A stretch of 64,000 bases of DNA, taken from Proteromonas lacertae. Taxonomy: Eukaryota. This document shows, piece by piece, positions 491-34,019 of the stretch. The stretch is from positions 62,001-126,000 of the forward strand of contig NGBS01000302.1 in assembly GCA_002245135.1 (NCBI GenBank), given 5' to 3'. The stretch's first letter is position 1. Every line of letters begins with the position of its first letter. The notes below the pieces were generated by a model that was not told the origin of the DNA, ran no database searches, and worked only from the letters and a program-made list of their open reading frames with translations. Made by a program: the position numbers and the translations under genes.

Positions 491-3400
491 ATGCCAAAGA
501 CTCACAAATCTGATAGTACTGATAAAAGATTATCACCAGCAGGCTACTATCAAGTATGAAAGTAATGCTCTATCTAATAATAGAAATTAGCAACTAATCC
601 AAGCGCTTCTCCTGGTCCATTACCATCCGATGAATGCACTCGTTTGACAGTATTTATACATTTATTACACTTTATAGGAACTGAATCAACACAATATAGA
701 TTCATTCAACTATATGTTGGATACAGGTCTTCAATTAGCTATAGATGACTTGATGCCTGAACGAGTATAACATTATTTATTATATCTTTATTGATTTATA
801 GCTAAAAGTTGGAGATGATGTGATTCAATTCAGAGTATCTGGTTATAACCTCGATTTTCCTAAAATATCAGATGGTGTATCAGTATCCAATACTAAAAAC
901 TCTGTTCCAGTTTCAGATGACAGATTATTGCCACACATTTGCAGAGAAGCTGGTTTAACTTATGGAGGCAATTTCACATTAATTTTTGATGTTGATATTA
1001 ATGGTGAAACACACAAAATAGAGAAAAGTATGGGAATATTACCAATTATGGTGAAATCCAACAAGTGTCACTTGACTGGTATGAATCCACAACAATTAGT
1101 AGATGCACATGAAGAAAGTAATGAATTTGGAGGATATTTCATATGTAATGGAATTGAAAGATTAATCAGAATGTTACAAGTATATACTTATTATTATTAT
1201 TATTATTATGAATAATAGATTCCTCGTCGAAATTTCCCAATGGCATTTTCCGCGTTCCTCCTACACCAATCGTGGTCCAATGTATACTGATAAAGGTGTT
1301 AGTATAAGATGTGTAAAACACGATCAGAGTGCCAGTTTCGTGACTCTCCATTATATCAGTGATGGTAGAGTAACCTTAAGATTCTCCATTAGAAAACAAG
1401 AATACTTAGTGCCAGTGATCTATATATTAAAAGCCTTCAAATCCTGTACAGATAGAGAGATATATAATAAAATAATGAGAGGAGATAGTAGTAACATGTT
1501 CTTAGCTGATCGATTATCTATTATATTCAGAGAGAGTAGAAATAGTAAAATATTCACACAAGATGATGCTTTAACTTATATTGGATATAGGTTTAGATTA
1601 GTATTAGATCCTGGTGATGATATATCAGATAAAGAAATAGGACAATTGATATTAGATCGATATATATTTATACATTTAAATAACAATAATAATTCTAAGT
1701 TTGAGTTATTATTATTAATGTTACATAAGTTATATAGTTATGTGAATAATGAGATAGCTGCTGATAATCAAGATTCATTACAAAACCAAGAAATACTACT
1801 CTCAGGACATTTACTCACTGCATTTTTGAAAGATCGATTTGAATTCTTAATGTTGAATATAAAGAGACAATTGTTGAAGGAATATAATAGCAGTTTAAAT
1901 CAATACAAATATTAGTGGTAATAGAAGAGCAAGCAGTAAACCAAAACAACCATTTTCACTCAACATCAATGTATTTAGAAATGCATTGAGAGTACAAGGT
2001 GAGATTGGTAAAAGAGTGTATTTGATGTTAGCAACTGGTAATGTGAATACTTTGTCAGGATTAGGATTGATGCAAATATCTGGATTTACTATTGTGGCTG
2101 AGAAAATTAACTTTTGGAGATATTTATCTCATTTTAGATCTGTTCATAGGTATATAATATATATAAATATTAATTATTGTTAATTAATACATTATCTATT
2201 ATTATCTATACTAATTCTACTTGTATTTATAATACACCATAATGTTATATATAATGATAATTAAAAAGGGTATCTTATTTCTTTCTATAAATTTCTTACT
2301 AAGAGGTTATCATATATTATTATTATTTATATAGAGGATCATTCTTCTTGGAAATGAAAACAACATCAGTGAGAAAAGCTATTACCAGAATCATTTGGAT
2401 TTCTATGTCCTGTATGTTTATATATATTATATTATTATTATGAAATGTAATGAATGTTAAATATGTAATGATGGACTGAATTTTATATATAATGAAGTCA
2501 ATTTTATATCATGAACATTTGTTATTATTATTATATAATGTGATGATTATTAAATTATGATCGATAGGACTGAAAACAATAATGTTGTATAACCTATACG
2601 TTGAACATTATTATATATATATTATTATTATTATTATTATATAAATATTGTTTTATATATTATTTACATAGGTTCATACACCTGATGGTCCACCTTGTGG
2701 TTTATTAAATCATTTAGCTTCATTATGTCAAATAACTACACGATATATAGAACCAACTAATATTACATCAACACTTATATCACTTGGTATGACTCCCATC
2801 AGTAACAGTGTTACTACAGTAATGAATACAGTGCCTGTATTATTAAATGGTGAAGTTATAGGATATATTAATCCAAGTATATATTATATATATATATATA
2901 TATTAATTATTAATATTTTGATTATGATGATGATAAATTGGTTTTTCCCATACCATTCGCAGTACTTAGCGACTTAATACTATCTTTATGCCAAAAGATA
3001 AGTATAAATGGGCTTTATTTCCTTGGATGTCTGAATAATCAATATTATTTCTCTATTATATATAAATGTGATGATAACTTGGTTTTCCCATACCATTCGC
3101 AGTACTTAGCGACTTAATTTTAACTTTTGCCAAAGGTTAATAATAAATGGGCGATATTTCCTTGGATGTCTGATTTATATATATAATTCATAATTATCTA
3201 TTTATTATTATATTTATGCATATATATTAATCTTTAATAGGTTCATTATTAATAATATCTAAACAATTACGAAGTCTCAAAGTCCAACATAAGAACAATT
3301 TACCTTCTATATTCGAAATATGTGCAATTCCTAAATATAAAGAAGGTGGTGGTCCATATCCTGGTTTATACATTTCTACAGAAGAAGCAAGACCAATCAG

Positions 3401-5221
3401 ACCAGTCAATAACCTCAGTAATCAATGCATAGAATATATATCACCAATGGAACAAGTGTTTATGGATATTGCAATTACTGATTGTGATATAAGAACAGGT
3501 GTAACTACTCATAAAGAAGTAAGTCCTACTTCAATGCTGTCAGTATTAGCATCATTAACACCATTCTCTGATTTCAATCAATCTCCTCGTAATATGTATC
3601 AATGTCAAATGGGTAAGCAGACTATGGGTGATGGAGCAATGTCTTTAGCTTATAGAACTGATGGTAAATTATATAGATTAATTACACCACAAGTATGTAT
3701 TATATATATATTAACTATTAATATTTTGATTATGATGATGATAAATTGGTTTTTCCCATACCATTCGCAGTACTTAGCGACTTAATACTATCTTTATGCC
3801 AAAAGATAAGTATAAATGGGCTTTATTTCCTTGGATGTCTGAATAATCAATATTATTTCTCTATTACATTAATATTATATAAATAGGTGCCAATTACACA
3901 GAATCAAAATGAAAGTGTTTATCGTTTTGATGATTTTCCCAATGGTACTAATGCTGTAGTTGCTGTTATATCTTATACAGGTTATGATATGGAAGATGGT
4001 ATGATTATTAATAAAGATTCTTATGATCGTGGATTTGCACATGGTTGTCTATATAAAACAGAGTTAATAGATCTAAGTGAAGATAGATCTAAAAAGAATC
4101 ATGTTTACTTTAGAAAACCACCAATTACATTATTCTCTAAAAGAGATCAAATGGATAAGAGTATATTGAGAATTGATAATGATGGTTTACCTCCAGTTGG
4201 TATTAAAGTACAAGAAGGTGATGCTTTATATATTACCTTTGATGAATTAGTCAATAAACCGATTATACATAGACATAAGAGTGTAGAACCAGCATATGTT
4301 GATCAAGTTAGAATTATTGGATTTACAAGCAGATCAAGTGATAATAGTAAAAATACAAATTCAGATTCTTCTAATAACACATCAAATGATATTAAATATA
4401 TCACTAAAGTGAGTATCAAGCTAAGATATACTCGTAATCCAGTAGTTGGTGATAAATTCAGTAGTAGACATGGTCAAAAAGGTACATTATCATTATTATG
4501 GCCTCAAAGAGATATGCCATTTACTGAATCTGGTATTACTCCTGATTGTATTATCAATCCACATGCTTTCCCATCTAGAATGACTATTGGTATGTTAATA
4601 GAGAGTTTAGCTGGTAAAAGTGGTGCTTTACATGGTATATATGAAGATTCAACACCATTTCAATTCAATGAGAAAAATACAGCGTTAAAGTACTTTGGTG
4701 AACAATTGAAATCAGCTGGATATAACTATTATGGTAATGAAACAATGTATAGTGGAATATTAGGATGTGAATTAAAAGCAGATATATACATAGGTGTTGT
4801 ATATTATCAAAGATTACGTCATATGGTGAGTGATAAGAGTCAAGTCAGAGCAACAGGACCAATCAATCAATTAACAAGACAGCCAGTTAAAGGAAGAAAG
4901 AAACATGGTGGTATAAGATTCGGTGAGATGGAAAGAGATAGTTTAATAAGTCATGGAGCTGCATTTATATTGAGAGATCGATTAATGAATTGCAGTGATA
5001 GACATATTGCTTATGTATGCAAGAAATGTGGATCTTTATTATCAACATTTGCAGTTAAACCTGATACTAAATATTATGAATCTAATAAAAAGAAGTTTAT
5101 ATGTAGATATTGCAATAGTACGAGTAATTGTACTAAAGTTGTATTGCCTTTTGTATTCAGATATCTTGTAAATGAATTATGTGGAATGAATATTAAAGTT
5201 CGTTTAGATTTAACAAATTAA
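491..5221 (+). CDS. RPA2: DNA-directed RNA polymerase I second-largest subunit (multi-exon)
   Basis: Motifs [80 protein letters not shown]; Pol I-type wording; about 7 introns; apparent +1 indels near 1900 and 2375. Confidence 0.97.
2443..2520 (+). ncRNA. Candidate intronic box C/D snoRNA A
   Basis: AAATGT/ACATTT terminal stem, degenerate box C GTAATGA (2447), D' CTGA (2476), box D-like ATGA (2511), inside the 260-nt intron 2412-2671. Confidence 0.5.
2537..2609 (+). ncRNA. Candidate intronic box C/D snoRNA B
   Basis: AATGT/ACATT terminal stem, box C GTGATGA (2540), guide GATCGATAGG before D' CTGA (2570), box D-like TTGA (2601). Confidence 0.6.
2918..3042 (+). ncRNA. U14: U14 box C/D snoRNA, copy 1
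   Basis: Box C ATGATGA (2927), domain A CATTCGCAGT (2954-2963), domain B TTCCTTGGATGT (3019-3030) followed by box D CTGA, TTGATTAT/ATAATCAA terminal stem. Confidence 0.93.
3059..3181 (+). ncRNA. U14: U14 box C/D snoRNA, copy 2 (diverged)
   Basis: Box C GTGATGA (3068), identical domains A and B, box D CTGA (3170), TATATAAA/TTTATATA terminal stem. Confidence 0.93.
3726..3850 (+). ncRNA. U14: U14 box C/D snoRNA, copy 3 (same sequence as copy 1)
   Basis: Same boxes and domains as copy 1, in intron 3693-3886. Confidence 0.93.
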
Positions 5222-6961: not shown

Positions 6962-9900
6962 ATGGGGGGAAAATATGATAATAGGAGCAGTATTGTATGA
7001 ATAATTGAATAAATATTATTAGAAATTTTATAAATCTGTGTTTGGTTTTAAAGTAAGAATTTTTAACGTTATGATGTAGATTTTTAGTAATATAAACTCG
7101 ACCAAATATTTTGAAACGTATCATGTAAAGGATAAGAATAATTTGGAGAAAATAGTGAAGGTGTATGATAAACGAAATTATAATAATGAAATTCTATGTA
7201 ATTATGTATAATGAAATTATATTTCTATTTAAATTAGATGAATAATATGATTTTAATCACTTCCTTTCTGATTCCCTCTGTTGATGTGAGTTTAGAAATA
7301 GTGCATAACGATTTAATGATATGTTCAACATATTATAATAATGGATCAATAGAATTGTTAAATGAATTTAATGAAAAAGTAATGGAAAATATATTTAATG
7401 AAATAAGTTATGAATTGTGTTTATTAGATGAGTTGAATTTAATTCATGGAAGAATCAAACCTTCTAATATATTAATAAGAGATGATGGTAAATATATACT
7501 AAGTAATTACTGTGAAAATGACTTAAATGGATTAGAAAACAATAATTATAAAGAATTACTCTTCATTTCTCCAGAAGTATTGAAAAACAAAGAGATAAGT
7601 AATAAAAGTGATGTATTCAGTTTAGGTGTATTATTACATTATATGTTATTTAATAAAAATGTATTCTTATCTTGTTATTATAACCCCAATCTATCAAAAT
7701 ATATCAAAATTCTTATAAAATGTTTAAATCTAAATCCTGAGAAAAGACCAACAATAAGAGAAATTCACAATAGTCTTTCAAAAGAAAATAAAGAAAAATT
7801 GAATGAAGATGATATAATAGAAGTATTATTGAAAGATATAGATTTTCTATACGAATTAATATCGAATGATTATGAAATAAAAGATTCAATAATGTATGAT
7901 AAAATAATCACTGATAAAAGTATATATATATGTTATATTATTATTTCAATTATATTATAAATGAATAGAAAACTTAATAAAACTGATAAATCATTATAAC
8001 AGTTACGATAAATTAATCTACATTTACTATTTAGTGAATATAAGTTGGTATAATGAAGATAATAAACAGTTGATTGATTTATTAATAAATAGAGGAAATA
8101 TTTTTACACATTTTTTATATATTCATTCAGAAAAACCATTTCAATTGAATTTATCCAACAATAGTGATGATAACGATGAGGAAGAAGAGGAAGAGGAAGA
8201 GGAAGAGGAGGAAGAAGAAGAAGAAGAAAATGATTTTTTTGTTGTAGCAATTAATTTCATTCATCTTACTGAGTTACATTCATTGAATTTATATAATAAT
8301 CCGAAACTAACCAAAACAATTCAATCCTTTATCATATTTCCATATTTAGAAAGATTGAACATTTCTAAAAGTATAAATCTTCATAACAAAATGAAAGAAA
8401 TATCAATAGAATTATCCAATTTAGCTCATTTGAAGTCTCTAAAATTATCTTTCACTCATCTAAAAGATAATGATATGTTAATTTTTTTTCACTACTGTAA
8501 TACATTTAAAAAACTTTCGCAGTTATATTTATCCTGTATAATATGATATTTATGAATATATTGTAGATAATAACCTTGGTGATAAATCTGTTTTATATCT
8601 TCATCGATATATGAATAAACTTCCCAAATTAGAAAAACTGAATTTATGTGGAATAAATTTGAATATTGAAAGTGTAAAATTGTTGTTATATCATTACAAA
8701 TACAATTCAATTCCATTATATTTTTCATTCAAAAGTATTTTATTATTATTATTATTATTAGTCGATGAAAAATCATTCCGAAATGTTGATTGAGAATGAA
8801 TATAAAACAAATAATAGTTATTTTTATAAACAAATAGGTAAAAAAGAAAGTATAATAATCAATTGATATATATTATTTATAGAATGCTATAATAAATTAT
8901 TTAGTATGTATAAATCTAATCCAAATGATTATTGTCTTGGATTATTATTTGGTTTTGCTATGGCTAATCCACAATATAAACCTTCAATTCTTGAAATGAC
9001 TAAATCAAATTCAACAAAAAAGAAATTATTCTCCGTAATAAGTAATGATTATTATTTGAATCTTAGTAGTATATAAACGCTACTTTTATAATCTAATAGA
9101 TAATAGTCTAGATGAAAATGATATAGAAACCTTATGTGATTATTTAGATTATTGTCCAACACTGTCAATATTAGTAATTGCAAATAGTAGTCTTACTGAT
9201 AAATCCTTAATAAGACTGAGTAATGCAACAACAAAATTTACTAAGCTTCGACAATTATTTATTTCAGGTATTTATATAACATTTAAATATATAAATAGAT
9301 AATTCATTTACTTCAGAAGGAATAAAAGAATTATCAAAATCATTAAAGTATTTGACAGATGTGAGGATGTTAGGGTTCTTTAATAATATTGAAATTGGTG
9401 ATGAAGGTGTTGTATCAATTGTTAATTCTTTCAAATATATAAGAAAACTTGAGGCAATCAGTTTTCAAAGTATATAATATACTTAATTTATTCATATTGC
9501 AATAGATTGTGGATGTGAATCATTAGGACTAGAATCAATAAGTTACAATTTACATTATGTTACTAATTTGACTGTTTTTGCTTTGAAGAGTATATATTTT
9601 TGGTGTAAAATGTATAGATTTAAATAATTGTGAATCTTCATTTCAAAGATTAATGAAACAAGTAAAGCAATTGAGTTTGCTGAAGCGGTTATATCTAACT
9701 AGTATTAATCAATAGTATTTTTATTCTTAGCTTGTGAGATAAATGATAATGCATTTATCAATATTGTGTAGTAGTTTGAGTAAATTAACAAGTCTTGAAG
9801 AATTGAAATTAGGAGGTAAAATCTATTCTTTATGAATGATTTTTAAATAGATAATAGAATCAGTAGTATTGGATTAGAATATTTCATACATAATCTTCAT

Positions 9901-12900
9901 CATGTTACAAAACTCAAAACAATTTTTTTGTGGAAAAATTATATTGATGATGTTGGATTAATATCACTTACACATTCTCTTCATCTATTACCATTTCTAG
10001 AAACACTAAATTTAAATGGTATTATTAGATATTTTTTTAACAGTATAGGAAATAAAATAAGTGAAAGAGGATGTGAAATATTATTAAATAGAATGGAATG
10101 AATTACCAAACAGAATCGATGTTGATTTAAAAGGCAATATAATAGATACAATAGATAAACCAGATCTTCTAAACAAATTAAAACAAATAGATACTAGCTG
10201 TATAATAATTTCTAATTGTTTAATAATTGAAAATAGTTTTATGTTTAAGTGAAGTATATGATTTATTAAAGACCAAAAATTGTTATTCATATAAAATGTT
10301 ATTACAGTATGTTGTTGATAGTAATGGTATATATATAATTTTATTTATTATTGAAATAGGTTTATTAGAACATATAGTAGAATCATTTAATTCAACCCGA
10401 AATGATATTCTATTTACTTTTTTATGTAATTTAACTATGTGTTATAATGGATTTAAGAATAGATTGATGAAAATGATTGATTTCGAGAATGATAATTTAA
10501 GATTGAACTATTTCAAATGTATAGGAGATGAATATGATTTTAAAGCGGATAGTATGTGTTGAGATATATTAATTGAAATAGATAAAAGAATTACAAAAGA
10601 AGATTCAGAATATATAGGGAATAATATTGATTGTTTGAAAGAATTGGCAGCAGTTAATTTTAAATGTATAAACTACTGCTTTTATCTTAGCTTGTGCATT
10701 AAATGATGGTAAAATGAAAAGAATATTAAATGCATTATGTCGATCACATCAATTAGAATATCTTTGTTTAGGAGAAAACAATCTAAGTTCATCAATTTTA
10801 CAACCAATATCTAGAGTGATAATTAATAATAAACTCTTAAAATGTCTCATACTCTTTGGTATTTAATTCTAAATATTATTCTTTCACTAGATAACAGTTT
10901 ATATGATATAGGAATAGTAGAATTAAGTAAGAGATTAAGATATATTCCTAAATTAGAAATCATATCTTTGTCAAGTATAATTATTCTTTCTATATCCTAA
11001 TAGATAATAGATTTACTACAAAAGGAGCAATAGAACTATCATCCAATTTATCATATCTGAAAAAAACTAAGAAAAATAAACATTGGAATAAATGATATTG
11101 GTAATGAAGGAATAAAAAGAATAAGTAAAGAATTTAAGAATCTATCAAATTTAATAACAATTGGTTTTAGTGAAACAAATATAAATGATATTGGATTAAC
11201 ATATATATCCAATAATCTTTCTCACTTAAAATATTTGGAGGAGATAGATTTATCATTTAATGATTTCACAGAAATAGGGATAAAAGAATTTTCTAAATCG
11301 GTCAGAAAATGTGAAAATGTCGAAGAAATAGATTTTTCTGGTTGTGGATTAGATTCTATATCATTTTGTGTTTTACAAAAATTGTTAGTTTGCCTAGACT
11401 AACCTCAGAAACTTTCAATTTAAATTGTATGTTTTTTCATTATTTGTTGAATAGATAATTATATAGGAAATGATGAATTAAATGATTTGACTATAACTGA
11501 TGATATGTCTCGCTCATCATCAATATGCGAAATTAGATTTAAAAGTATTTTCTATTATTTTTTTTCATAATTTATTATAGATAATAATATGAATGACAAA
11601 TGTTTAATCAATTTATGTAAATTCTTAACGCAAGTATCAAATCTCAGATTATTGACTATTTCAAGAAATAAAATATCGAATGATGGAATAAAAGAATTAT
11701 CAAAACAGTTTTCTGTTCTATCGAAACTAGAAGAATTATATTTTGATGTAAATGAAATAACAGATGATGGTTTAAAATACATATCAGATTCAATCAGCAA
11801 TCTTTCGAATTTAAGATTTCTTTCATTGTCATGCAATAAATTCAATTTGAATGGATTTAAATACATGTCAGAATCGTTGCATTTCTTAGCTGATTTGAAG
11901 ATGTTATATTTAGATGGAACAAATTTAACAGATGAATCAATGAGAATAATTTGTGATAATTCCAAATATTTACCTCATTTAGAAAGATTAAATGTTGGAG
12001 ATAATAATTTAACTTCAATAAGTTGTAAATATATATCAGATTCATTTGTTTATATTCGAAGATTAAAATCACTTTACATTAATGGTATTTTTATTTTTCT
12101 TATCATTTTTATTGTTATTTTAGAAAATTCAATAAATGATCTGGGAATGAAATACCTATTTAAGAATATCAGTTATATAATAGATTTAGAATCATTAGAT
12201 GTGGGAAGTAAATATTTTCATTTATATATCAATAGGATGTAATTTAACAGATTTATCAATTGAGATAATATGTAATTCAATAAATTCATTGATTAATCTA
12301 AATACACTCTATCTGTCTAGTATTTATTTTACTATTTATATTATGCTATAGATAATGAATTAACAGATAATTGTATAACAGATTTATGTAAATTCTTTAA
12401 TCCATTAAATGGATTGAAATCCTTACATTTGAATAGTATGTCAATTTTTATTACTATTATCATTAGATAATAAGCTAACATGTAAAGGAATAAAAGAATT
12501 ATTGAAATGTGTTAAAAAATGTTCAGAGAGTTATGATATATTTATAACAGGAAATATAATGGAAAATGTAAATGAAGGATTATTAGAAGATATAGAATTA
12601 TGCAATCCAAATTATAGATGTATAGAAAGAATAAAAGAAAAGATAAATAACAAAGAATACAGTTATGAAAATGAAGATGATTATATTGATATTATTAAAA
12701 GTATCAGTTTATTAGATGATATTTGTAGAGAATACAATTATGATAAAAGAAAAGAAAATGAATATTTACTTTTAAATATCTGCCTATTTTATTCGAAACA
12801 AACTAGTTATATTCATTGAAAACACAATATTTGATTTACATACAATATATTATACTCTTTTATCCTCAATAAAAGAAGATCATTTCAATTGTTTTAAAGA

Positions 12901-13210: not shown

Positions 13211-15857
13211 TTATATCTCTAATGGTTGATATTGTTGGATTTGTTCAGCTGTCATAGTTTTGGCTTTATATCGACTTGGTGGAATTGGTTTTATCATTGG
13301 ACGATCTAAAAATTCAATTGGAATTCGTTGGAATCGAGAAGCTTCAGGATTAAATTCGGGAGTTTGAATAAATGTTAAAAATAAGTGTTTTATTCGAGTT
13401 CTTAAACCCTCCAAATTTCGACCTAATCTTCCACGATTTAACATATCAGCTTCACGATCGATTAATTCCACCAATTCTCGAGTTAATTTTGTATCAAATT
13501 CTTTTATTGTCCATTTTATATGCAATAATATATCTAATCTTTCATCTATTGATTTCTTATTATCGCATAATCCAACATATAATTCTTTCAATTCACTAGC
13601 TCGTTTTGTATAAGGAGTTTCAATTGTGGCGATTTCATTATCTCCCATTGCCCATTTCTTATCATTTGACATTAAATCTAACATTCGATTAGTATTTTCT
13701 TCTTTGTTTTCTTTTGCAGCTTGACATTTTAATCGATCAATATTTTGTAATAATTGAGTTTCTTTGTATAATACTTGAGCTAATGCTTCTAATCTTTCTT
13801 TATCACCAAGACTACTCTCTTTTATACGCTTATTCTCATAATATCGCCAGTTTTCTAATTCATTATATAATATTTCAAAATCCTCAGTTGTTCGTGGATG
13901 CATTCTTCTCTCAATTTCACGATGTCTTTTCTGTTCAGCTCCATCATCTTCTTTTTGAATATTTTCATCTCGTTCTTTATTTATTCGATCTCTCTCAGCT
14001 CTTAATTCTTTTGCTCTTCGACAAGCTATGAATTTTCTCCAATATCTTTGAATTACAATTGTTTTCTCAAATTTTAATTCTTCTAATTGTTGTGCAGTAA
14101 AATAAGGACCAGGAACTATGATTTTATCTTCATCGATTATCAATATATAAATCTTTACGTTCCATCTGTGTTCCATGTTCTCGTTTTGATTGAATACTTC
14201 GAGTTTTAAATTCATATGTTTGAGTTTCTCGATGGCTTTTAGATGGTTGATTTGCCCAATCAGTTTTCATTCGAGGAGTATTGGTGCAAGCATCATGATA
14301 TTCTAAACCACTTTTCTTCTTTCGAAATCCTCCAATAAATGGCTTTCTAATTGTACAAGGAGTTACTTCAACATCAATCGCTTTAACAATTTCACCACAA
14401 TCTTTGATTTGAACTTTTAATGTATAATTTCCATTACTTAGTATTATTGGTGATGGAGGTTTTCGATCACCTTTCACTTCGATTATATATTGTCTTCTTA
14501 ATTCCATTCCTAAATCTATTGGACTTAGATCATCAGTTACTGTTATAGCTATTTAAATATATAAATATATATATATAATTAATAATGTATATAATTATAC
14601 AATTATAAACTAATTTTGAACCTTCCAACATCTTAAATTCTTCATCTACTTTTCTATGGATTATTGAAAATTTTATATTGATTGGAAATAGATAAGTTGC
14701 TACTATTTGACTTTTCATTTTTGGATCATGAATAAATGATAAACTAACACATTCTTGTTCATCACTATTGTTACTTATATTATATTCATCTTCTTCATAA
14801 TTTGAATCAATATAATCATTGTTATTCATATCATAGGGTTGAGTTTGTTCTTGAAATGTTTCTTCATTTGCTTCTTCTTCATTATCATCTTCAGAAGGTT
14901 GTTGTAAATAGATTAATTCTTCAGCTTCTTTTGTTGGAGCTACTGTATCATCATATTCATGCTCCTTCAGGTTGCTGTTCTTCTTCTTCTTGTTGTTGAA
15001 TATTTGTGGGTAAATCAACTGCTACTGTTGTTACTAAATCACCTTCTTTAGATTCCATTGGAGCAGCTGATGGAACTTCAACTAAGATTTGGTCTTCTTT
15101 AGATTCTTGTACTTCAGATGGAGGTTCTTCTACTGGCATTTCTTCTTTAGATTCTTCTTTACTTTCTTCCACTTGTTGTTGTGTTTCTTCAGCTGCTGGT
15201 TGTTCTTCTACTGGCTCTTCCTTTGTTTCTTCCTCTGGTGGTTGTTCTGTAATTACTTCTTCTTTAGATTCTTCAGCTTCTACTGCTGGAGTTTCTTCGG
15301 TTTCTGGTTGTTCTGTTGGTTGTTCTTCCTTTGACTCTTCAGTTACACCTTCCTTTGCTGGTAGTGGCTCTTCTTTAGTTTTTTCTGGATTTTCTATTGG
15401 TTCTTCCTTTGATTCTTCTATTGGAGCTTCTTCAGAAGGTGTTTCTTCTGATGGTGGCTGTTCTATTGGTTGTTCTTCTGATTGCTCATTTTCTTTACTC
15501 TCCGATTCTACAGCTGCTTCCTCTTTCGATTCTTCTATATTTTGGTTTTCACCTTCTTCTGTTTTTGGCTGTACTTCTTCTCTTTCATTATCTTCATTAT
15601 CACCTTCGGCTTCTTCAGTCTTAGCCCTCCTCTGCATCTTTTGTTTCATCTCTTTCCTTATATTCATTTATATTATTATTTTCTATATTTTCATTTTCAA
15701 TTGTGTTGTTTTCTGATTCCTTCACTTCTTCAGCTTCTTTTGATTCAGAATTATCTTCAGTTGGTTGTATATCTACATTTTCTGATTTACTTTCTTCTTC
15801 TGTATTGGGCTCTATATTTTCTGGATTATCTAAATTCTCTGTTTCCTCAGAATTCAT
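13211..15857 (-). CDS. IQUB: IQ and ubiquitin-like domain protein (ciliary radial-spoke IQUB/FAP253 family) with long acidic N-terminus
   Basis: KPFIGGFRKKKSGLEYHDA, RETQT, IQRYWR IQ motif, PRTTEDFEILYNELENWR, IDREADMLNRG, FIQTPEFNPEA; ORF pieces joined by indels and one intron. Confidence 0.9.
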
Positions 15858-22111: not shown

Positions 22112-25100
22112 TTATTCGATCTGTAAATCAGTAATGAAATTTAATTTTAATTTATAGGAAGCTATATCCTTTTTAGAAAGGTCATTATCTATTCTCAAAT
22201 TATAGAAAGAAATATATATACTTTTAATATACAAAGAGTGAAGTCGAGTTAGTTGAGACATATTCTCTACTATCAACTTCGCACCTTTCACACCAATATG
22301 ATTATTGTTTAAATTAAGTAATTGAATCTCAGGCAAAGAATTCAATCCTTCTAAAATATACTTCATACTATCATTAGTTAAATTATTATTACACAAAATC
22401 AACTGACTGATTAAAGGTGTATTTACAAACTCAGTTGATATACATTTCACACATTTACTGTCTATTTCATTATTAGATAAATCTAAATAACGTAGATTTG
22501 GGATTGTAACTAAGTTAGAAGCTAGTATTTGAATTTCATCCACTTTCATTTTGATATTTGAAAAAGTGATTGATTGTAATTTTGGAAGTGAAATGAAACT
22601 GTTACAAATGAAAGTTAACATTTGAGTTGTATAGTTTTGATCTAATAAAAAAATAAAACAGTAGATGTTTATACTTGAATAATTCACACTTTCTATATTC
22701 TTCAATAAAGGTAATTTATCTGTTATATACTTTATTTCATCCACTCTCAATGTACAATTAGAAAAATTGAGTGAATGATCATTCTTTATACTGTTGAAAT
22801 ACTTTTCATGTGTTTCATTTGAGAAATGTATTTCTGATTTTAAGGAAGGTTTTGTTGTTGGAAATTCCATTATAATATTCAATAGCAAGAATAATAGATG
22901 TTCAGAATGAAAGTTGTTATACTCAGAAACTAGATTACTTCTTTTTATAAATTCTATTTATAATATAATAATATATGATTATAATTAAATATACCATCAA
23001 CATCTATTTCTCTAAATGATGTAACAATTTGTTTTATGTAATTCACATTAATACAAACCAAATATAAGAAGATTCTTGTGAATTTTGGATCTGTAGAATT
23101 CAACAATATATTCTCTACATCTTTTATTTCTAACTTCTTTATTTCATTTACTATTCAAAAAAATATCACAATGAAGAATATACTATCAAATTGATAATAA
23201 TGTGTGGATGTATAATACTTCAATAACACAGAATACATAAACGAATTTAAATGTGAACATAAGTTGAATAACACATATAAATTTGGTATTTTATCAATCT
23301 GTTTCTTCAAATATTTAATTCCTTCTGGATATACATCATCATAACAGAAGAACAGATTCTGTAGATTTGGTAATAAATCAATATTCTTACATATATACTT
23401 TACACCTTTTTTACCAATACAAACACCACTTAAATCAATAGCATATTCACTTCTAATGCTGAAGAATATTTTCTGTTGAATTTCATTTTCATTAAAGTCA
23501 ATTTGAGTATGTATAAATTCAAATGCAATTGGATAATCTAAACACAAATTCACTAATAAGAAGAACAATTTATCATTATTCTCATTATTGTATAATTTGA
23601 TGATAATTCCTAGTAAATCTGATAGTTTTATTGTAATAAATGAATCAATAATTGACTGCAATTCTCTAATGTTTACACACATTAAATATAGATAAATTTT
23701 GATTAATCGATCATCTGTGGAATATAAAAAAACTTTCTCACAATCTGTTATTTCTAATTTCTTTATTTCCCTCTCATTATATTCACATGAATCTGAGTAG
23801 TAATACTTTATTAATATCTTGTAAATATCTGTTGAAAGATTTGAACATAATTTGAATTTACTGTGGATATTTGGCAGTTTCTTTATATTCTTCGATAAAT
23901 ACTTTATACTATCTTCATTTATATCCTCTTCTATCAACATTATTAAACATAATTCATATATATATATATATACCATTGAGATACAAATTCTCTAATTTTG
24001 GAATAAAATTTAAATGATCACAAATAAAATGAATTCCTTCAATTCCAACTTTCACATTTCTATAATCCAAAGTATAATTCTCTCTTACACCTTTCATTAT
24101 CATCTTATGTAAATCATTCTTAAACTCTAATAAACACATTATATAACCGAAATAATCATAATATTCCATGGATATGTTGAGGAATAAAGATAATAATTCT
24201 TCTAAATCATGTGAATTATAAACAGTTGCTAATTGATTTAATACACCTAATAGAAAGAATATAACTAAAAATATATGATACTTTCAATCGGAAGTGTATT
24301 AAAACTATCAAATATTTCTTTAATATCAACAATATGAACACATAACACATAGTAATATATTCTTGTGAAATTCTCATCTGTACAATTTAAAAATACATTT
24401 TCAACATCTTCTACAGGTAATTCAAGTATTTCTTTAGTCTCATATTTGAAGAAATTGTCAGAATAGTAGTACTTTAATAATATTTCAACTTGTTTAGTAT
24501 GTGCGTATTTAGCTATTTTGTATAAATGATATAAGTTTGGAATATGTTCTATATTCAATCTGAGTGATTTATAGCCATGATGACCAAATGTATTATCTAA
24601 TCAATATAATAATGAAATAAAAACATATAAATATATAAATACGAAACAAATCCAAATACTGCAATTGTGTTAATGGATATAGATTATCACATAATATCTC
24701 TATTCCACTTGATCCAATCTCATTTGATTGTAAATATAATGTCTTTAAGCGAGGAATTAATTCAAATGAATTTGATAAATATTTTATACCTTCTGATTCT
24801 ATTTTATTGTCATTCAAATTCAAATGAAGTAGATTTGGTATATTTGATAAACTTTTACTAAATAGCTTCATATCTCCTTTTACTATTTCATTTCCACAAA
24901 GATTCAGTGTTTGTAATGAAAACACTGATGATAAATTGGCTGATAAGTATTCAATACCAAAACTACCTATTTTACATCCTGTCAAATCTATTTCTATTAT
25001 ATTCGGTTCTAGCTGCAAATTACATAATAATTGATGAATTCCATAATCACTTAGATTATTATCTATAATATAATGATATTATAAGTTATATATACTTATA

Positions 25101-26932
25101 AATCTCAATATTGTGATATTGTACATCAAATGGAATATACTCAACAATTGATTTATTGATTTCTCATTCCAATTTACTTCCCAAAATGAAAATCCTTTGA
25201 ATGGTTTAACTACTTCCATATGTTTACGAAATAAAGTCAATAACTTCAATATATCAGTATGATCGATATTATTTATTGTCTTATAATCACTATTAAAATC
25301 ACAAATAACAGTATCTATTAAATGAAACGAATATATATTATACTATAAAATGATAAAACATCAACATGTTTTACTAATTCCAATGTATCAATGAAATCTT
25401 CATTCTGTAGTTTTATGGAAGAGAATCTAAACTCTGGTAATGGAGGTAATAATGGTAAAGATGATGAAACAGTATTTCTGTCATAAGTTTCACCTAAACA
25501 AAGATTAATTGATTGAATATATATATTTATATATACTTGTAATTGTGAATGAATCATTTGGTATTATTCCATTGAATAAATACATATATGTATGATTATT
25601 TTGTATAATGTTATATAACTGATTATATAAATCTGGATTGTAATAGTATAGAGACAATAATAAGCTAAATAGTTTTGAGTTGTTTAGAATGTTGTTGGAA
25701 ATATTCGAATAATTCATTCTCTAGAGATTTGTTGGAGTATAAATAGTCGATTACTAGATAATTATATCTAACATTACATAAACTATTTACAACTTTTTCT
25801 TTTAATTCATTTGGAAAATTTGATACTATTTCATAATAAATAACCATAATATATATATACATTTAATTTTCAATATTTAATGACAATAATACAAATGTAG
25901 TAATATCAACCACTTTCTGATCAGCTGATGAATATAACCATTGAATATATGAACTAATATTATATTTCTGTAGTTCTTTCATATCTTCGGGTTGTAATAT
26001 TAATATTTCATCATTTTTATAATAATATTTCAGCAAAACTGCATTTAATCCTTCATCAGATGTTAAAACTAAATAAAAACATATATCAATAGATTTCTTA
26101 TACATAATGTGTTTTGCTCTAGAGTAGAAGATATAATATCATTTTTTGTCACTAACTTAAGTGCCTCAGAATCAATTAACTCTTCAGTTTTTACTTTTGA
26201 CCAATCAATTTGCTTTAAATATTCTGTATAAAATTCTTCCAATTGTGTTATATGCATTTCCCTTTCTATATGAGCATATGCATAATTGAAGTAATATAAT
26301 AATTGATTCAAGAAAAATGTTTCATTTGTTACACTATCATGAGCTACACTTACCATTGTCTTCAATTCTTCAAGATTATAGTTAATTATGTTTGTCGAAT
26401 TTAATACTTCTGTTATATTAGTTTGGATAAATTTGTCTATTGCTAAATGAAGATCTTTAACCATAGGACAAGACAAATATTCTTTATAATCAAGATATTG
26501 GTTGAAAGTAGCTAACGTAAGATTATCTTTCATATATCTATCATTATAGCAAGACATAATTATACTTTTGAATATCATGACATAATTCTTTGTCATTCAG
26601 TGCAATTGAGGTAATTAATGCATCCATCATATTATCTGGATTTATATCTGCATTACCATATCCATAATATCTAAACATTACATTTATTCCATTCACAGTC
26701 ACAATATCAGGTAATTCAATTGCTAAACCTGCTAATGGATCATTAATAAGTCTATCAAGTATTGCATTTTGTGCTGATAAGATTGATTTAACACCTTGAA
26801 CTCTTGTTCCCTTCACTATAAAAATAACGTCTCCTTTTCCTTTATTAACAAGATCAATTATAATTCTACATATAGAAATATCACATTATACCCTTGAGAT
26901 GGTATTTTCTTTGATAGCTTCATTGGCATCAT
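22112..26932 (-). CDS. BTB/POZ(-BACK) plus RI-type LRR modular protein
   Basis: GDVIFIVKGTRVQGVKSILSAQN BTB start; LRR blocks at about 24600-25000 and 22200-22780; internal repeats such as LLKYYYS..EIK.L.I.DVE. Confidence 0.7.
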
Positions 26933-27066: not shown

Positions 27067-30000
27067 TTATTTACCAATATATCTCACCTTCTCTTTCTTC
27101 ATCTTGGATATAACACTTGTATTTCCTTGTGCAACACTTAATCTTGTCAATGTGGCATCAATTACTCTAACAGATTCATATAAAGTGGTTAATTGCTCTG
27201 TTAATTCAGAAAAAGTTGATATTTGTTCTCTAAGCGTTGATTTTATCTTATTCACATCATCCAATAATCTTTCATTGATAGGATTTTCATCTTGTGGACT
27301 TATCTCTTTATCATTCGATTTCTATAATAAATATATAGAATGAATATACTTTATTCTTTCTCTTTGTTTCATTTGTTCTTCTATACAATCCATTTGGTGT
27401 CCAGTATACCAAACCATCTCTTCCTTCCATCAAATCACCCCAATAAGCTTCATCAGATAAATCATAAATCACACATCTTCTTTTTAAACCATGTTTATTC
27501 TTTTTATCAGTCTGATGGTCTAAATAACTATCAGCCATATACTCCGCCATTAAAATATGCCAATTTACGTATGACTGATCACGAATGATGGGATATACAC
27601 TAGAAACAATAGCAATAAACAAATTCACCAAAATTAATGCCAATATCACATACACTACGAAATAAACAGTAAATAAAAACCTTCTATCTAAATTGAATAA
27701 AACAGAAAATCCATGATTAAATGCTGAGCAAAATAAATGAAAGAAGGTTGGAAGTATTTGATAGAACTGTATAATCTCTGGACCATATCCAATAATATAA
27801 GAAAATGTTAAAATCATCATTAAAAAGAAGAATACACAAATATATAACAGAACATCAATATCAACTACAGTTCTTAATACAGCTAAAATCATTGGTCCCC
27901 ATCCAGGAATTAAACGCAAAAACTTTATAAATCTCATACCTAATAAGAAGCAGATAAAAGAGATGAAATCTAATTCATATTTCATCAGTGCAATTAATGA
28001 TGAAAAATCTGTGAAATCAGTTGATAGAACATCTACTGTGTGATTTTTATACTATTTAAATGCATAATATATAACATATACAATAGCATTAGTGATCATA
28101 TCTAATATAGCAAGTGTTACTAAACAGAATATGATAATCCAATCATAAATCATCCAGAAATCTTTAAATTGATCACCTAAACCTTTACTTTGAATTATAT
28201 ATCTTACTTTGAAAAACATTTCAAATATAATTTCTACTATAACAATTAACTCAAAAATTAACTATATAAAAATATATATATATTAACCTATACAGATGGA
28301 GGAAATCTATTATCTGAGAAAATAACAGTCTTTACTGTATGTTTTGGTATTACTTCACCTGTCTGTAATCTTTCAACAATCAATTCTATTTGACAAATAC
28401 GTTCTGTAGCTGGATTGAATGTATGAAAATGATAATTAATCGATTGTGTATAATTATTGGATAAAGCAGTTAATAAATGTGATTGATATTCTTTTTTTGC
28501 TTCATCTAAATCAAATAATCCCAAATTCTTCTTAAAAACTGTATTAACATCACCAGTTAAACAGATATTAGTAATTCCAGCAAGTTTTACCCTGTCAAAA
28601 CTTTCACATTCTAATGTTTCATATGCTTTTTCTTCTATATATAAAGCACCAAATACATAACTATCAGCATGATAAGTAGCTGGTTTATCTATTTATATAT
28701 TAATAATATGTAAAATATAAAATATTATATTTATATATATATATACTATGATCAAACATCCCTGTAATTTTCGAATCTAAGAAATATGTTACTGTCCATT
28801 CTTCAAACTCTGCAAATGATTTGATTGATGTAAAACCATAATTATCCAAATCAGAATTTACTTGATATTGATACATAGTTTCTTTTTCTGAATGATAATC
28901 TAAAAATGCTGGTGTAAAAGCTAAAAACACCAAATAAGCAATAATAAATGTAACAACTTCAATAGAAAATTGTCTTAAACCAAATGCCATTTTGTGTTTT
29001 GTAACTTCAGGAGATGTTGACAGTAATTCAACCACTTGTGCATTTCTTAATTTAGAGGAAATTGGTTCATCTGGTTGCCTGTTCTTCAAATCTTTTGATA
29101 CAACATTTGTCCATTTGTCTTTTAAATGAATATCTGCATAATAGCACTCCACTTTTTTCTGAGATTCATATTGAACAATCTTCTTCTTCTTCTTTGGTTT
29201 CTGTGTATTTTTCTTTCTCCAAAATTGCCACCATTTAACTTCAGACTGTTTTTGTTTTTTCTCTTCTTCAATATCTTCCACTTTTGGTAAATTATATCCT
29301 GACACAATACTTCGTTTTATTAATGACAATGCATTTGGACCACCACTTAATGTTTGTGATTGTTGTATTTGAGATCCTTTTAAAATGGATGGTGTATTTG
29401 AAAATGCAATACTTTGTCCTGGCTGTTTTAGTATTGAAGAAATACCAACATTATTATTATTTTGTTTTATTGATTTACTCTTTGATTCCTTGTTCTTTGG
29501 ATTATTATTATTATTATTATTATCTCTATTTTCATTGTTATTCTCTTCACTTTCTCCATTATCTTCAGTTTTTTTCTTTTCGTTTTCATTTATTGCTGCT
29601 GCAATTTCTTTCAATAATGCTCTTCCATATGGTGTAATTTGAGTTCCATCTTCTTTCATTGGATTTACTCCATGATCTAATAACACTTTAATAACATCAA
29701 TATGACCAGCTTTTACAGCTAAACTTAATGGACTAAATTCATTTATATTATACCTATTAACCAATGAAGTATTACTTTTACCTTTATCTTCATTCTCTTC
29801 ATCATTTCTTTTCTTACTACCTTTACCTCCATCAGGTGTAGTTCCTCTTGTGACTATTGAATTAGCATTTGGACTTTTATCATGCATAAATGGAGTTTTT
29901 ATTATACTTAAATATCTCAAAGATGACTGATTAGTACCTGTTGTATTTCCATTTGTATTAGTGTTTGTATTGGTATTGGTATTGGTATTAGTGGTAGAAG

Positions 30001-33000
30001 AAGGTGTAATCGTCGCTGTTAATGGCGTTTTTGTACTTTTCATTTGTTCATGCATATTTCTAATCACCATTCTTGAGTTTAACGTTGATTTCTTATTATT
30101 GACAGGTGTTTCTGGTGATAATAAATCATCTACATTTGTTGATTTAACTGATGCTCTATCATCAACACTTCTACTTTCAATTAATTTGGTATTAATATTT
30201 GGTAATACTTCATCTTCAGTATGATATAAACTATCAATATCCATATGTTTATCACTTAATAACAGTGCTAAGATTTGTGCATGACCATTTGCACAGGCAT
30301 GATGTATTGCTGTAAAACCTCTTTTATCTTCCACTTCAATTTTTGCTCCATTTCTTAACAACAATTCACAGATTTTGAAATTTCCTAAGAATGAAGCTAA
30401 CATCAATGGAGTTGTTCCATTATTATCTGTTAATTCAATTTGTGCTTTGTTCTTTATCAACAATTCACAGATTGCTATAAAGCCTCTTTTTATAGAAATA
30501 TATAACGGAAATTGTCCAAAACTATCTTGTGTATCAATGTTGGCTATAATACTATCTTCAGATAATATCAATTTAGGAATAATATCAATTTGATCATTTC
30601 TACAAGCTCTTAACAAATACAAATTAAACAATTCAATCTTATTTCTTTCAGTTTGATCAACATTCTCTTTCAACGTTTCAATATCATTTACATCAACGTA
30701 ATTATCATTTAAAGCTTCTACTCCTTCTTTTTTCTTTATTGTATATCCTAATTTCAAAATGCCTCTAATCATTTCCAATGCATTTACTTGACACATTTCT
30801 TTTTCAGATTGTGTTAAATATTCGTATGGTACTAATTCTGAACTGACTTTCTCATTATTAGCAGCTGCTGGATCTGGTGAATACTTCCATCCTGCTTTTA
30901 TCTTCTCTTGTGACCATTCTTCATGTGTATTCTTAGATAATAAGTGAACCAACGGGATTTGTTCCATTGAAACTTCTATATTTGATGTATCTAAAGGTTC
31001 TGGAACATATCTTCTTGTTCTATATAACCAAATAATAAATAAAATAACTATACGCTTTCTTTATATTATGTTCATTCATATAATTCTTAGCAATATTATC
31101 AGAAACACATTCTATATCATATCCTAAATATTCAATCAATTTCACACTATGTTTAGCAGCATCAATATCCCATTTCTGATCTTCAGCTGACAAATCACAC
31201 CAAGCCTTTATCATTGGATGTATTTTCTTGTTATTATCTCTCTTTGGACCATATTTCCATCCATTTTCTATCTTTTCAGCACACCATACTTCATGACTAT
31301 TTTGTGATAAACATTGTATTAATGTATTTAAATATATATTATCTGGAATCGAAGATGTATCAATTGGATTTGGAACATATTTATAACCTTCAGATTCTCT
31401 TTTATCTACACCAAGCAAAGCTTGACATGTATTCTTTTGACAAGCACAATAAGTGTCTTGAACTAATCCAACATAAGAAGTTTTATGATTACCATGACAT
31501 CTTGTTTTACAGATTAAACAGATATTTGTATCACACTCATCACAGTGATATATATGCTGAGTTATTGGATTAGTAAATGTAGCAAATGAGAAATGTACAA
31601 CTGTGTGTGTCTAAATAAAACAATAGTAATATTTATTAAATATAATAATAATAATAATATATACATTTCATTCTTTTTGTTAATTTCAACAACAAATCAT
31701 CAATCACAATCTTATTTTCATCAAACCTCAGCAAGCCTTCTACTACATCCACATCACCACTTAATAGTGTATAATTCAATATTTTATTAACAGGAACACC
31801 AGTACATCTAGTAACATGTGAACCACCTAATATCAAGGCAGAAATACAATCGAAATTATCTCTCAAAATCTATTAAGAATAAAATAAAATAAAAAAACAT
31901 AATATATACAGCATAATCTAATTCACTATATCCAGTCTCTTCATTAATTCTATTACATAGCAAAGGCTCTTGCCAAATATCATAAGTGGTATCTTGTAAA
32001 CAATAAATAGAATCACATCGATCATTCCATGTGATAATATCTAAAAATGAATATCCTTGTTTCAAGATCTTATTAATTGGCATTGATTGTAAAACTTCAA
32101 AATTTGTAGAACCATTGACTTCAGATAATAATCCAGTTTTACCTAACAAAAACATCGGACTCCATCCTAATTTATCTTCAGCATTCATTAATTCTATTTT
32201 ACCTTCTAAACTACTCACTTTATTAAATAACATCCTCATTAATTCCAAAGAAACATTCTCATGATTGTCACTAGTATTTGTACATTTTAAACACATAAAC
32301 AAAGGTGTAGTTTGATAAAATGATTCAACTAAAGGATCTGCACCTTTCTCTAATAGCAATTCAACCACTTCCATATTACCTAACTCACAACTAATCATTA
32401 AAGGAGTATAGCCATCTACTAAAGATGAAATATTTACATCAATATTACCTATTATCAATAATTGTTTTATTACATTAATATCATTCATTCTACAAGCAAT
32501 ATGTAGTGGTGTTTCTCCATTACGATCTACTCCATTTGGTTCAATATCACATTCTATTAAATACTTCAATACGAAATCTCTTTTCGCTTTTATAGCACAA
32601 TGATAAGGTGTTTCATTAAGAGGAGGAACATGTCCACTTAGATATTGACATTGATTTAGTAATTTAGTGACAATTGCATCAGATTCATTATAAATGGCAT
32701 GGCACAAATCCAATGTTTCAGGTGCTATTAAATATAAAATAAGAAAAATATAAATATATACGCAATTCTTTAAAGCAAACTATATAACTCAAAATACTCT
32801 GATCATTTAAAGTTCCTTCACTTCCTCCTAACACAATTTGATCACCAGATCTTACAACATCACTCTTTTCATACACATTAAAACATATATTTGTAGTATC
32901 AGTATAAACAGCGTAGGAAGTACGAGTAAATTTATTACTATTTAACCATTTCACTTCGAAATTAGTAGCAGGCCAAAGGATATACAATCTACACCTAATT

Positions 33001-34019
33001 CTTATTGTTAATGACATAAAATCTGAAGACGTGTTCGTTCTATCAACATGATGACCTTTTATATAAGGACAGCCTCTTAATTCATCACTTATTCGTGTTA
33101 TTTTCTGTTTTCTATCTGTCCAAGGCTTTTCACCAACATCTAATGGTTCATTATTGATTTCATATTGTCCACTTCCTTTACAAGATATTTCACAGATTGA
33201 ATCTTCTATTACTAATGAAGAATTCATTTCTTTTTCATATATTTGAAGTAATTCTAAACCTGTTGATAAAACTGTCCTTACTTTTTCATATTCTAATTTT
33301 TTATAAACTTCTTTCATATCCTCTTGATTAAATCCTTTACATGCATCTGTTATACAAAATATCTTTGCTGATGGTGCATATATGCCACAATCTAATATAT
33401 TAAACTGAATACCATATTCAACAGCTAATCCACAGAAATACACTTCTTTTATTGATTTTTGTGTGAATAATTCCGATAGAAGACCTTGTTCATTCTTTTT
33501 ATATTCTCTAAAACCAGAATCTATTATTCATATGTTAATTGATATATACAATTATCGATTGTTGGATCAGTTCCACATCTAACTATTATATCAGAACCTC
33601 TTACAAGAAGATCGGGATGTAACTCAGCTCCATGTGTTCCTGCTACACAAAAATCAGTCCAGAGAAGCTGAGAACCAATTATAGGAACATGACTAATTTT
33701 ACCTTTAGCATAACCCTAAAATATTATGTTATACAATTTTATTAATAAATATACTGGATTGTTTGAACAAAAAGAACTATTATTAATAATAAAGAGAAAA
33801 ATATACCAATGATTCAGAGGATGCCACAGCTTGTAATATTACTGTGTAATCAAAATCTTTACGCCTTAATTTATTAATCACAGGGATAATATCAACAGCA
33901 TTTTCAATAGGAACGGCTCCGCCTTCAAAGTAATCGTTCTAATGTAAAGATATGTATTAGTTATGTTATACTTGAACATCTACAATAACCAAAGCCCTTA
34001 CTATATGTTCTTTTGACAT
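27067..34019 (-). CDS. Multidomain PKD/TRP-type cation channel: pseudo-nicotinamidase, beta-rich domain, ankyrins, UBR-box-like Zn finger, 2 RyR repeats, ankyrins, 6-TM pore, coiled coil
   Basis: Exons splice through GT-AG introns with two single-base corrections (about 33830 and 31590); ALVIVDVQNDY; GETPLHIAC; YVPNPIDTS..NSHEVW..GWKYG; RFIKFLRLIPGWGP and LVNLFIAIV S4-S6 signature. Confidence 0.85.

Follow-up and report, generated by a model that had tools for sequence, protein, structure and literature searches.

We analysed a stretch of 64,000 nucleotides (nt) of contig NGBS01000302.1 from Proteromonas lacertae (the window), AT-rich eukaryotic DNA with a GC content of 26.4%, in which the gene for RPA2, the second-largest subunit of RNA polymerase I (Pol I), carries three copies of the gene for the small nucleolar RNA (snoRNA) U14 in two of its introns. 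RPA2 occupies positions 491 to 5221 of the forward strand, as delimited by Pfam matches, Protein Data Bank (PDB) matches and spliced alignment. The Pol I-specific domain RNA_pol_Rpa2_4 (PF06883) matched the predicted protein with an E value of 9e-14. The top PDB matches were Pol I RPA2/RPA135 proteins, with E values at or below 1e-138 as compared with about 1e-82 for RPB2 and RPC2, and the three top-ranked solved structures (7ob9_B, 7aoc_B and 4c2m_B) are all Pol I RPA2/RPA135. Judged by its predicted product, the host gene is Pol I RPA2. In a quick tree that took in the window sequence and 42 of 120 homologues, the protein fell on the stramenopile-containing side of a split with 96% support in the Shimodaira-Hasegawa-like approximate likelihood-ratio test (SH-aLRT), outside any supported small clade. 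The best RPA2 match stood at 60% and the best PRP19 match at 78%, and the searches turned up no close match to a named protein.

Eight introns interrupt RPA2, all of them GT-AG, with lengths of 30, 28, 37, 39, 185, 260, 364 and 194 nt; the four long ones lie at 2150-2334 (intron 5), 2412-2671 (intron 6), 2877-3240 (intron 7) and 3693-3886 (intron 8). Intron lengths were surveyed in hand-picked, strand-correct regions of the window by means of a crude gene finder whose length prior was flat: the median was 35 nt, and 86 of the 105 introns predicted were no longer than 50 nt. The figure of about 30 nt given for typical introns in the original prediction was fair. That prediction had also named RPA2 as the host and set the limits of introns 7 and 8, and both hold. 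Each of the two introns contains stop codons in all three frames. When the last three RPA2 introns are removed, a single frame of 676 amino acids results that aligns without a gap at both U14-intron junctions to all three homologues tried; the spliced protein is continuous across 2877-3240, and the exon between introns 7 and 8 is intact, with 151 codons. The earlier description of the gene lacked the long introns 5 and 6. It also lacked three apparent +1 slips of the coding frame (near 1250, 1895 and 2372), which all fall in the first 40% of the coding sequence and are each followed by stop codons.

The three U14 copies lie on the sense strand, and each matches the SNORD14 covariance model (RF00016) over its full length, positions 1-111 of 111. 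Copy 1 (2922-3038; 47.2 bits, E 6.7e-8) and copy 2, a diverged copy (3063-3177; 50.3 bits, E 9.4e-9), share intron 7, and copy 3 (3730-3846; 47.2 bits, E 6.7e-8) lies in intron 8. Every copy has its own box C, domain A, hairpin, domain B, box D and flanking stem; the box C sequence RTGATGA and the box D sequence CTGA are present in all three, and the terminal stems measure 8-12 base pairs (bp). In copy 1, box C is at 2927, domain A at 2953-2963, domain B at 3019-3030 and box D at 3031-3034; its flanking stem measures about 12 bp, and the UGCCA loop of its Y-type hairpin is at 2989. The corresponding parts of copy 2 are box C at 3068, domain A at 3093-3103, domain B at 3158-3169, box D at 3170-3173 and a flanking stem of 10 bp. 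The sequence CATTCGCAGT occurs exactly at 2954, 3094 and 3762, and with up to one mismatch it has 7 matches in comparison with 1.12 expected; TTCCTTGGATGTCTGA has three exact occurrences. A Y-domain hairpin between domains A and B is found in the U14 of yeasts, plants and Tetrahymena and is absent from that of vertebrates. The Y hairpin of copy 1 was more stable than its shuffled counterparts (z score −4.0), with a smaller difference for copy 2 (z −1.8). The full-length model matches and the threefold exact occurrence of both sequences bear out the U14 identity, the count of three and the sharing of one intron by two copies, all of which had been proposed earlier. Thus, at the level of sequence, three full-length U14 genes on the sense strand of RPA2, two in intron 7 and one in intron 8, are confirmed.

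Domain A of U14 acts in early pre-rRNA cleavage by pairing near nucleotides 86-96 of 18S ribosomal RNA (rRNA), and 2′-O-methylation at the position equivalent to yeast C414 and human C462 is directed by domain B. Rfam detected no rRNA genes in the window, and pairing was measured on stand-in ribosomal DNA (rDNA), for which 47 eukaryotic rDNA loci present in prokaryote records were available. One of these, L151, is by Rfam a complete unit of small-subunit (SSU), 5.8S and large-subunit (LSU) rRNA. With the 18S sequence of this stand-in, which is not that of the host organism, domain A forms 11 bp (nt 86-96) and domain B forms 13 bp, including one G-U pair (nt 408-420). Domain B adjoins box D, and the D+5 rule points to C412 of the L151 18S sequence, the site of yeast Cm414. 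The cited sources describe the formation of Cm414 by yeast U14 (PMC5199042), its human equivalent C462 (PMC3273799) and the division of labour between domain A in pre-rRNA cleavage and domain B in methylation (PMC3273799). When the conserved 5′ segment of U14 was examined for a third element that pairs with rRNA, seven stand-in 18S sequences offered no consistent target. No match to the U14 and 18S patterns was found in viral contigs. The 47 loci (L122-L168) are eukaryotic 18S rDNA contigs carried in prokaryote genome records, and the LSU gene of L151 contains a group I intron.

The relationships among the copies are informative as to their history. An alignment of copies 1 and 2 over 107 columns has 12 differences, 8 of which fall within the 28-column Y hairpin and none in the guides. 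All six loop-proximal pairs of the hairpin survive: in one, both sides have changed, and in another, U-A has given way to U-G. This pattern fits selection on a working RNA. Copy 3 is much closer to copy 1: the 151 nt at 3716-3866 are identical to those at 2908-3058, and the likeness extends back to the 5′ splice site, interrupted by two substitutions and an 8-nt change in the length of a TA repeat. Given this identity and the resemblance of the donor regions, the simplest history would be a recent copying of one intron's donor-plus-U14 half into the other intron, by which the U14 pair was created or renewed.

The spacer that separates copy 1's box D from copy 2's box C is 33 nt long (3035-3067) and is made up of the 3′ arm of the copy 1 stem, a pyrimidine-rich linker of 7-9 nt and the 5′ arm of the copy 2 stem. 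It contains neither AG nor GT. A micro-exon or recursive splicing between copies 1 and 2 was considered and is ruled out, since the spacer lacks AG; intron 7 is thus truly dicistronic and conceals neither an exon nor a recursive site.

The other two long introns contain further candidates. A scan of the whole window for box C, box D, a stem of at least 5 bp and a 10-nt rRNA guide returned four guide boxes, all in RPA2 introns: those of the three U14 copies and one in intron 6. The latter belongs to a candidate box C/D snoRNA at 2535-2610 (box C at 2540, guide at 2559-2568, D′ box CTGA at 2570, D-like TTGA at 2601, terminal stem of 7 bp), and its 10-nt guide is complementary to a conserved LSU stretch; 2 of 200 rRNA shuffles gave a match in this intron. 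When mapped by hand with the oligonucleotide table in supplement 5 of PMC5199042, the target falls near yeast 25S A2758, and the table lists no yeast ribose methylation between Um2729 and Gm2791; the predicted site is hence unmethylated in yeast. An assignment as the snR68 guide for Am2640 is ruled out by the same mapping, as the target lies near A2758 and not A2640. We regard 2535-2610 as a moderate candidate, with about an even chance of being a real snoRNA. A weaker C/D-like stretch with a terminal stem, for which no rRNA target was found, is present at 2443-2520; if it were real, intron 6 would be dicistronic too. In intron 5, a fold at 2189-2314 is a weak H/ACA-like two-hairpin candidate in which 14 nt separate the first pocket from an ANANNA box. 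Its first hairpin, which was chosen by eye, had a z score of −3.1 (3 of 200 shuffles), the second was not significant, and no convincing target was found. All Rfam matches in these last two stretches (2443-2520 and 2189-2314) were far under the cut-off, and at E values up to 0.1 Rfam gave no match in the interval 5300-64000.

For comparison, we collected 154 U14 matches in 121 metagenome loci from 13 of the 64 parts of the collection; most of these loci resemble plants, algae, fungi or animals. Eight RPA2 queries detected RPA2 at none of the 121 loci, 43 of which have only about 300 nt of flanking sequence. A Pfam match was present in 14 of 116 U14-flanking stretches, none of them to an RNA polymerase; these genes are neighbours and not proven hosts. 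In GC-rich, alga-like loci (L018, L030, L033, L064 and L077), a Ribosomal_S6 (PF01250) stretch is closely followed downstream by U14 in the same orientation, and in six others (L013, L015, L027, L031, L032 and L060), U14 is found a short way upstream of a short-chain dehydrogenase. The 5′ segments closest to those of the window U14s among the 154 matches were found at L079 and L099. The gene adjoining L079 clusters with a Blastocystis protein, and by this clustering L079 would be a Blastocystis locus. At 166-535 of L079, a single apparent GT-AG intron contains a C/D RNA directed at 18S C1639 (taken to be snR70), followed by two U14s; L099 has the same arrangement on its minus strand, except that a single U14 follows the C/D RNA. 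At both loci U14 is hosted not by RPA2 but by a short transcript in which no coding frame is recognisable, and all U14s of the two loci are under the Rfam cut-off. The three C/D RNAs in the L079 intron keep their own boxes and are separated by spacers shorter than the 33-nt RPA2 spacer, which makes it likely that relatives process such intronic C/D clusters.

We consider it highly probable that the two enlarged RPA2 introns hold three U14 genes whose RNAs are freed from the spliced introns to guide 18S processing and methylation. Maturation of intronic snoRNAs is described as a sequence of splicing, debranching and trimming to the bound core proteins (PMC11028025; PMC10557570). RNA polymerase II would transcribe RPA2, and the lariats would be debranched and their ends trimmed to the limits protected by the small nucleolar ribonucleoprotein (snoRNP). 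Intron 8 would then yield a single RNA of about 110 nt. Intron 7 would probably yield two U14 RNAs after one cut in the short linker or the flanking stems; a lesser but realistic prospect is an uncut dimer of about 250 nt. The earlier claim that the dicistronic intron needs endonucleolytic cutting is accordingly valid only if intron 7 yields two monomers; end-trimming alone would give an uncut RNA with two snoRNAs. As to history, U14 may have entered RPA2 in this lineage, and the later copy would have raised U14 output per transcript.

The original prediction had further proposed that RNAs for pre-rRNA processing are co-produced with the polymerase that makes pre-rRNA. Co-transcription of U14 with RPA2 follows from the layout, U14 being intronic and on the sense strand. 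A selected link to Pol I may exist but lacks support, because the nearest relatives sampled use a host other than RPA2 and the levels of intronic snoRNAs often stray from those of their hosts; most do not track them, according to a review (PMC11028025). Any functional coupling to Pol I looks lineage-specific. RPA2 may simply have served as a constitutively expressed ribosome-biogenesis host, in which case a special regulatory tie to Pol I would be unnecessary.

Several observations count against the interpretation that three working U14 RNAs are released from RPA2. The copies score 47-50 bits, under the Rfam gathering score of 64 bits for SNORD14, and at gathering scores Rfam gave no match anywhere in the window; the check with the SNORD14 model suggested earlier was thus positive for three full-length matches at the E-value threshold and negative at gathering. 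All four other protist-like U14s tested are also under 64 bits (40.9-59.5 bits), which indicates that this cut-off misses divergent members. By every sequence feature tested bar the Rfam cut-off, the predicted RNAs are U14. Another point is that the stand-in loci on which 18S pairing was measured had been fetched with the complement of both guides, so that the match reports conservation of the target sites and is no independent confirmation. The folding of the whole RNAs is unremarkable (z −1.3 and −0.6) and no better than that of shuffles, and the 33-nt spacer lacks a predicted hairpin of the kind typical of an RNase III site. Finally, the three +1 slips may mean that this copy of RPA2 is damaged or that the assembly is error-prone.

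The nature of the spacer bears on the view that intron 7 is not cut, in which case end-trimming would leave the U14-U14 dimer, or one copy only would mature, and intron 8 would supply the monomer. The spacer is mostly taken up by the two terminal stems, and there is precedent for uncut products of introns with two snoRNAs, the snoRNA-related long noncoding RNAs (sno-lncRNAs) (PMC11028025). However, none of the copies has lost its box C, its box D or its terminal stem, copy 2 has intact inner boxes in spite of being older, and the members of the Blastocystis three-RNA cluster likewise keep theirs. As a full account we consider this view rather unlikely. A reading that goes further, and that we consider improbable, is that RPA2 is an operon-like host of five or six snoRNAs in which the intron 7 pair matures in one piece as a tandem U14 or RPA2 splicing is gated by the assembly of snoRNPs; if this is true, Pol I abundance would be tied directly to the capacity for 18S processing. 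Equally improbable in our estimate is a selected regulatory link as such, either by tying U14 dose to synthesis of the Pol I subunit or by feedback of intronic snoRNP assembly on RPA2 splicing in the manner of SNORD86/NOP56. One could point to the presence of snoRNAs or candidates in all four long RPA2 introns and in no other part of the window, and to the existence of cis-acting intronic snoRNAs (PMC11028025). Nevertheless, the absence of RPA2 from the 121 other U14 loci examined, the different host in the nearest relatives and the frequent independence of intronic snoRNA levels from the host (PMC11028025) all speak against such a link, and the spacer showed no alternative splice site.

The slips and the repeated block raise the question of whether the locus itself can be trusted. 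The three slips in the first 40% of the coding sequence, with the stops that follow them, speak for a reading in which this RPA2 is decaying and survives only to host snoRNAs while a functional RPA2 lies at another place in the genome. Yet none of the segments homologous to RPA2 contains an in-frame stop, identity to homologues is 41-65% throughout, and the C-terminal part of 676 amino acids is intact. Moreover, comparable slips are predicted by the gene finder elsewhere in the window, in genes other than RPA2 (near 11083, 14960, 35648, 40605 and 55046, among others), which suggests sequencing error; for this reason assembly errors are the most likely source of the RPA2 slips, and decay of the gene is very improbable. 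An assembly that seems to carry insertion and deletion errors might also have duplicated copy 1 or copy 3, given their 151 identical nucleotides, in which case the true gene would have two U14 copies and perhaps no dicistronic intron. We find this the hardest of the alternatives to credit, as the 5′ part of the block differs between its two occurrences and the block stands in two different, correctly spliced introns with an intact exon between them. Release of three U14 RNAs from two RPA2 introns is the interpretation that we retain.

Apart from RPA2, the window contains a gene with an IQUB domain at 13214-14266 on the minus strand. IQUB is a ciliary protein, and the gene is a sign of a flagellated organism. 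Blastocystis is reported to have lost nearly all ciliary genes, and Proteromonas is described as flagellated and as having a GC content of 27% (PMC12129017). The source organism is thus likely to be a relative of Blastocystis that bears flagella. A long run of genes on the minus strand (27314-33527) encodes ankyrin repeats, a RyR domain and a polycystin (PKD) channel domain and possibly represents one large channel protein. Leucine-rich-repeat genes are present at 7238-12819 (plus strand), 22112-25585 (minus strand) and 57656-59044 (plus strand); the first of these has a protein-kinase domain at its start and seems to hold premature stops.

Genes for ribosome synthesis are common snoRNA hosts (PMC12508059), and annotation of snoRNAs in protists is said to be thin (PMC11028025). 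Within the literature that was searched, which left bioRxiv supplements and subscription journals outside view, no report was found in which RPA2 hosts a snoRNA, and none that describes snoRNAs from Blastocystis-type protists. RPA2 as a host of U14 therefore appears to be new, and the intronic multi-snoRNA arrangement was already known. Together with L079 and L099, the locus affords a first look at the layout of snoRNA genes in the Blastocystis group. It indicates that multi-snoRNA introns persist in genomes with tiny introns, it seems to have caught recent copying of a snoRNA from intron to intron, and its 33-nt spacer between two marked U14 copies offers a clean case for studying the cutting of intronic clusters outside plants and yeast. 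On the practical side, the Rfam gathering cut-off misses U14s of the type found in the window. Understanding of U14 or Pol I is unchanged unless feedback or an uncut dimer is shown.

Comparison with known systems places the RPA2 locus among several arrangements. With U14/SNORD14/snR128 (RF00016) the window RNAs share boxes C and D, domain A, domain B beside box D and the D+5 assignment to the C414/C462 site; they differ in being AT-rich, in scoring 47-50 bits against a gathering score of 64 and in having RPA2 as host. The UGCCA loop of the Y-type hairpin resembles the plant U14 consensus given in PMC3273799. The original prediction had listed vertebrate introns and the polycistrons of yeast and plants as the usual U14 arrangements, and that list omitted the intronic snoRNA clusters described for rice, Drosophila and Arabidopsis (PMC2780460; PMC2875012). 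In vertebrates, the U14 hosts are introns of HSPA8/hsc70 and RPS13: as in RPA2, several U14 copies reside in a housekeeping protein-coding host, but the hosts are different and each intron has one snoRNA. Chlamydomonas reportedly has intronic snoRNA clusters as well. Like the clusters of rice, Drosophila, Arabidopsis and Chlamydomonas, RPA2 has several snoRNAs, often paralogues in those systems, per intron of a protein-coding gene; RPA2 stands apart from them in its lineage (a likely gut-type stramenopile whose introns measure about 35 nt), in its spacer of only 33 nt and in carrying U14. Sno-lncRNAs also arise from two C/D snoRNAs in one intron, but in known cases a long intron remnant lies between the snoRNAs, in contrast to the short linker in RPA2. 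The Blastocystis locus L079 shares with RPA2 a tandem U14 pair inside one apparent GT-AG intron, whereas the host at L079 and L099 is a different one and U14 is preceded there by another C/D RNA.

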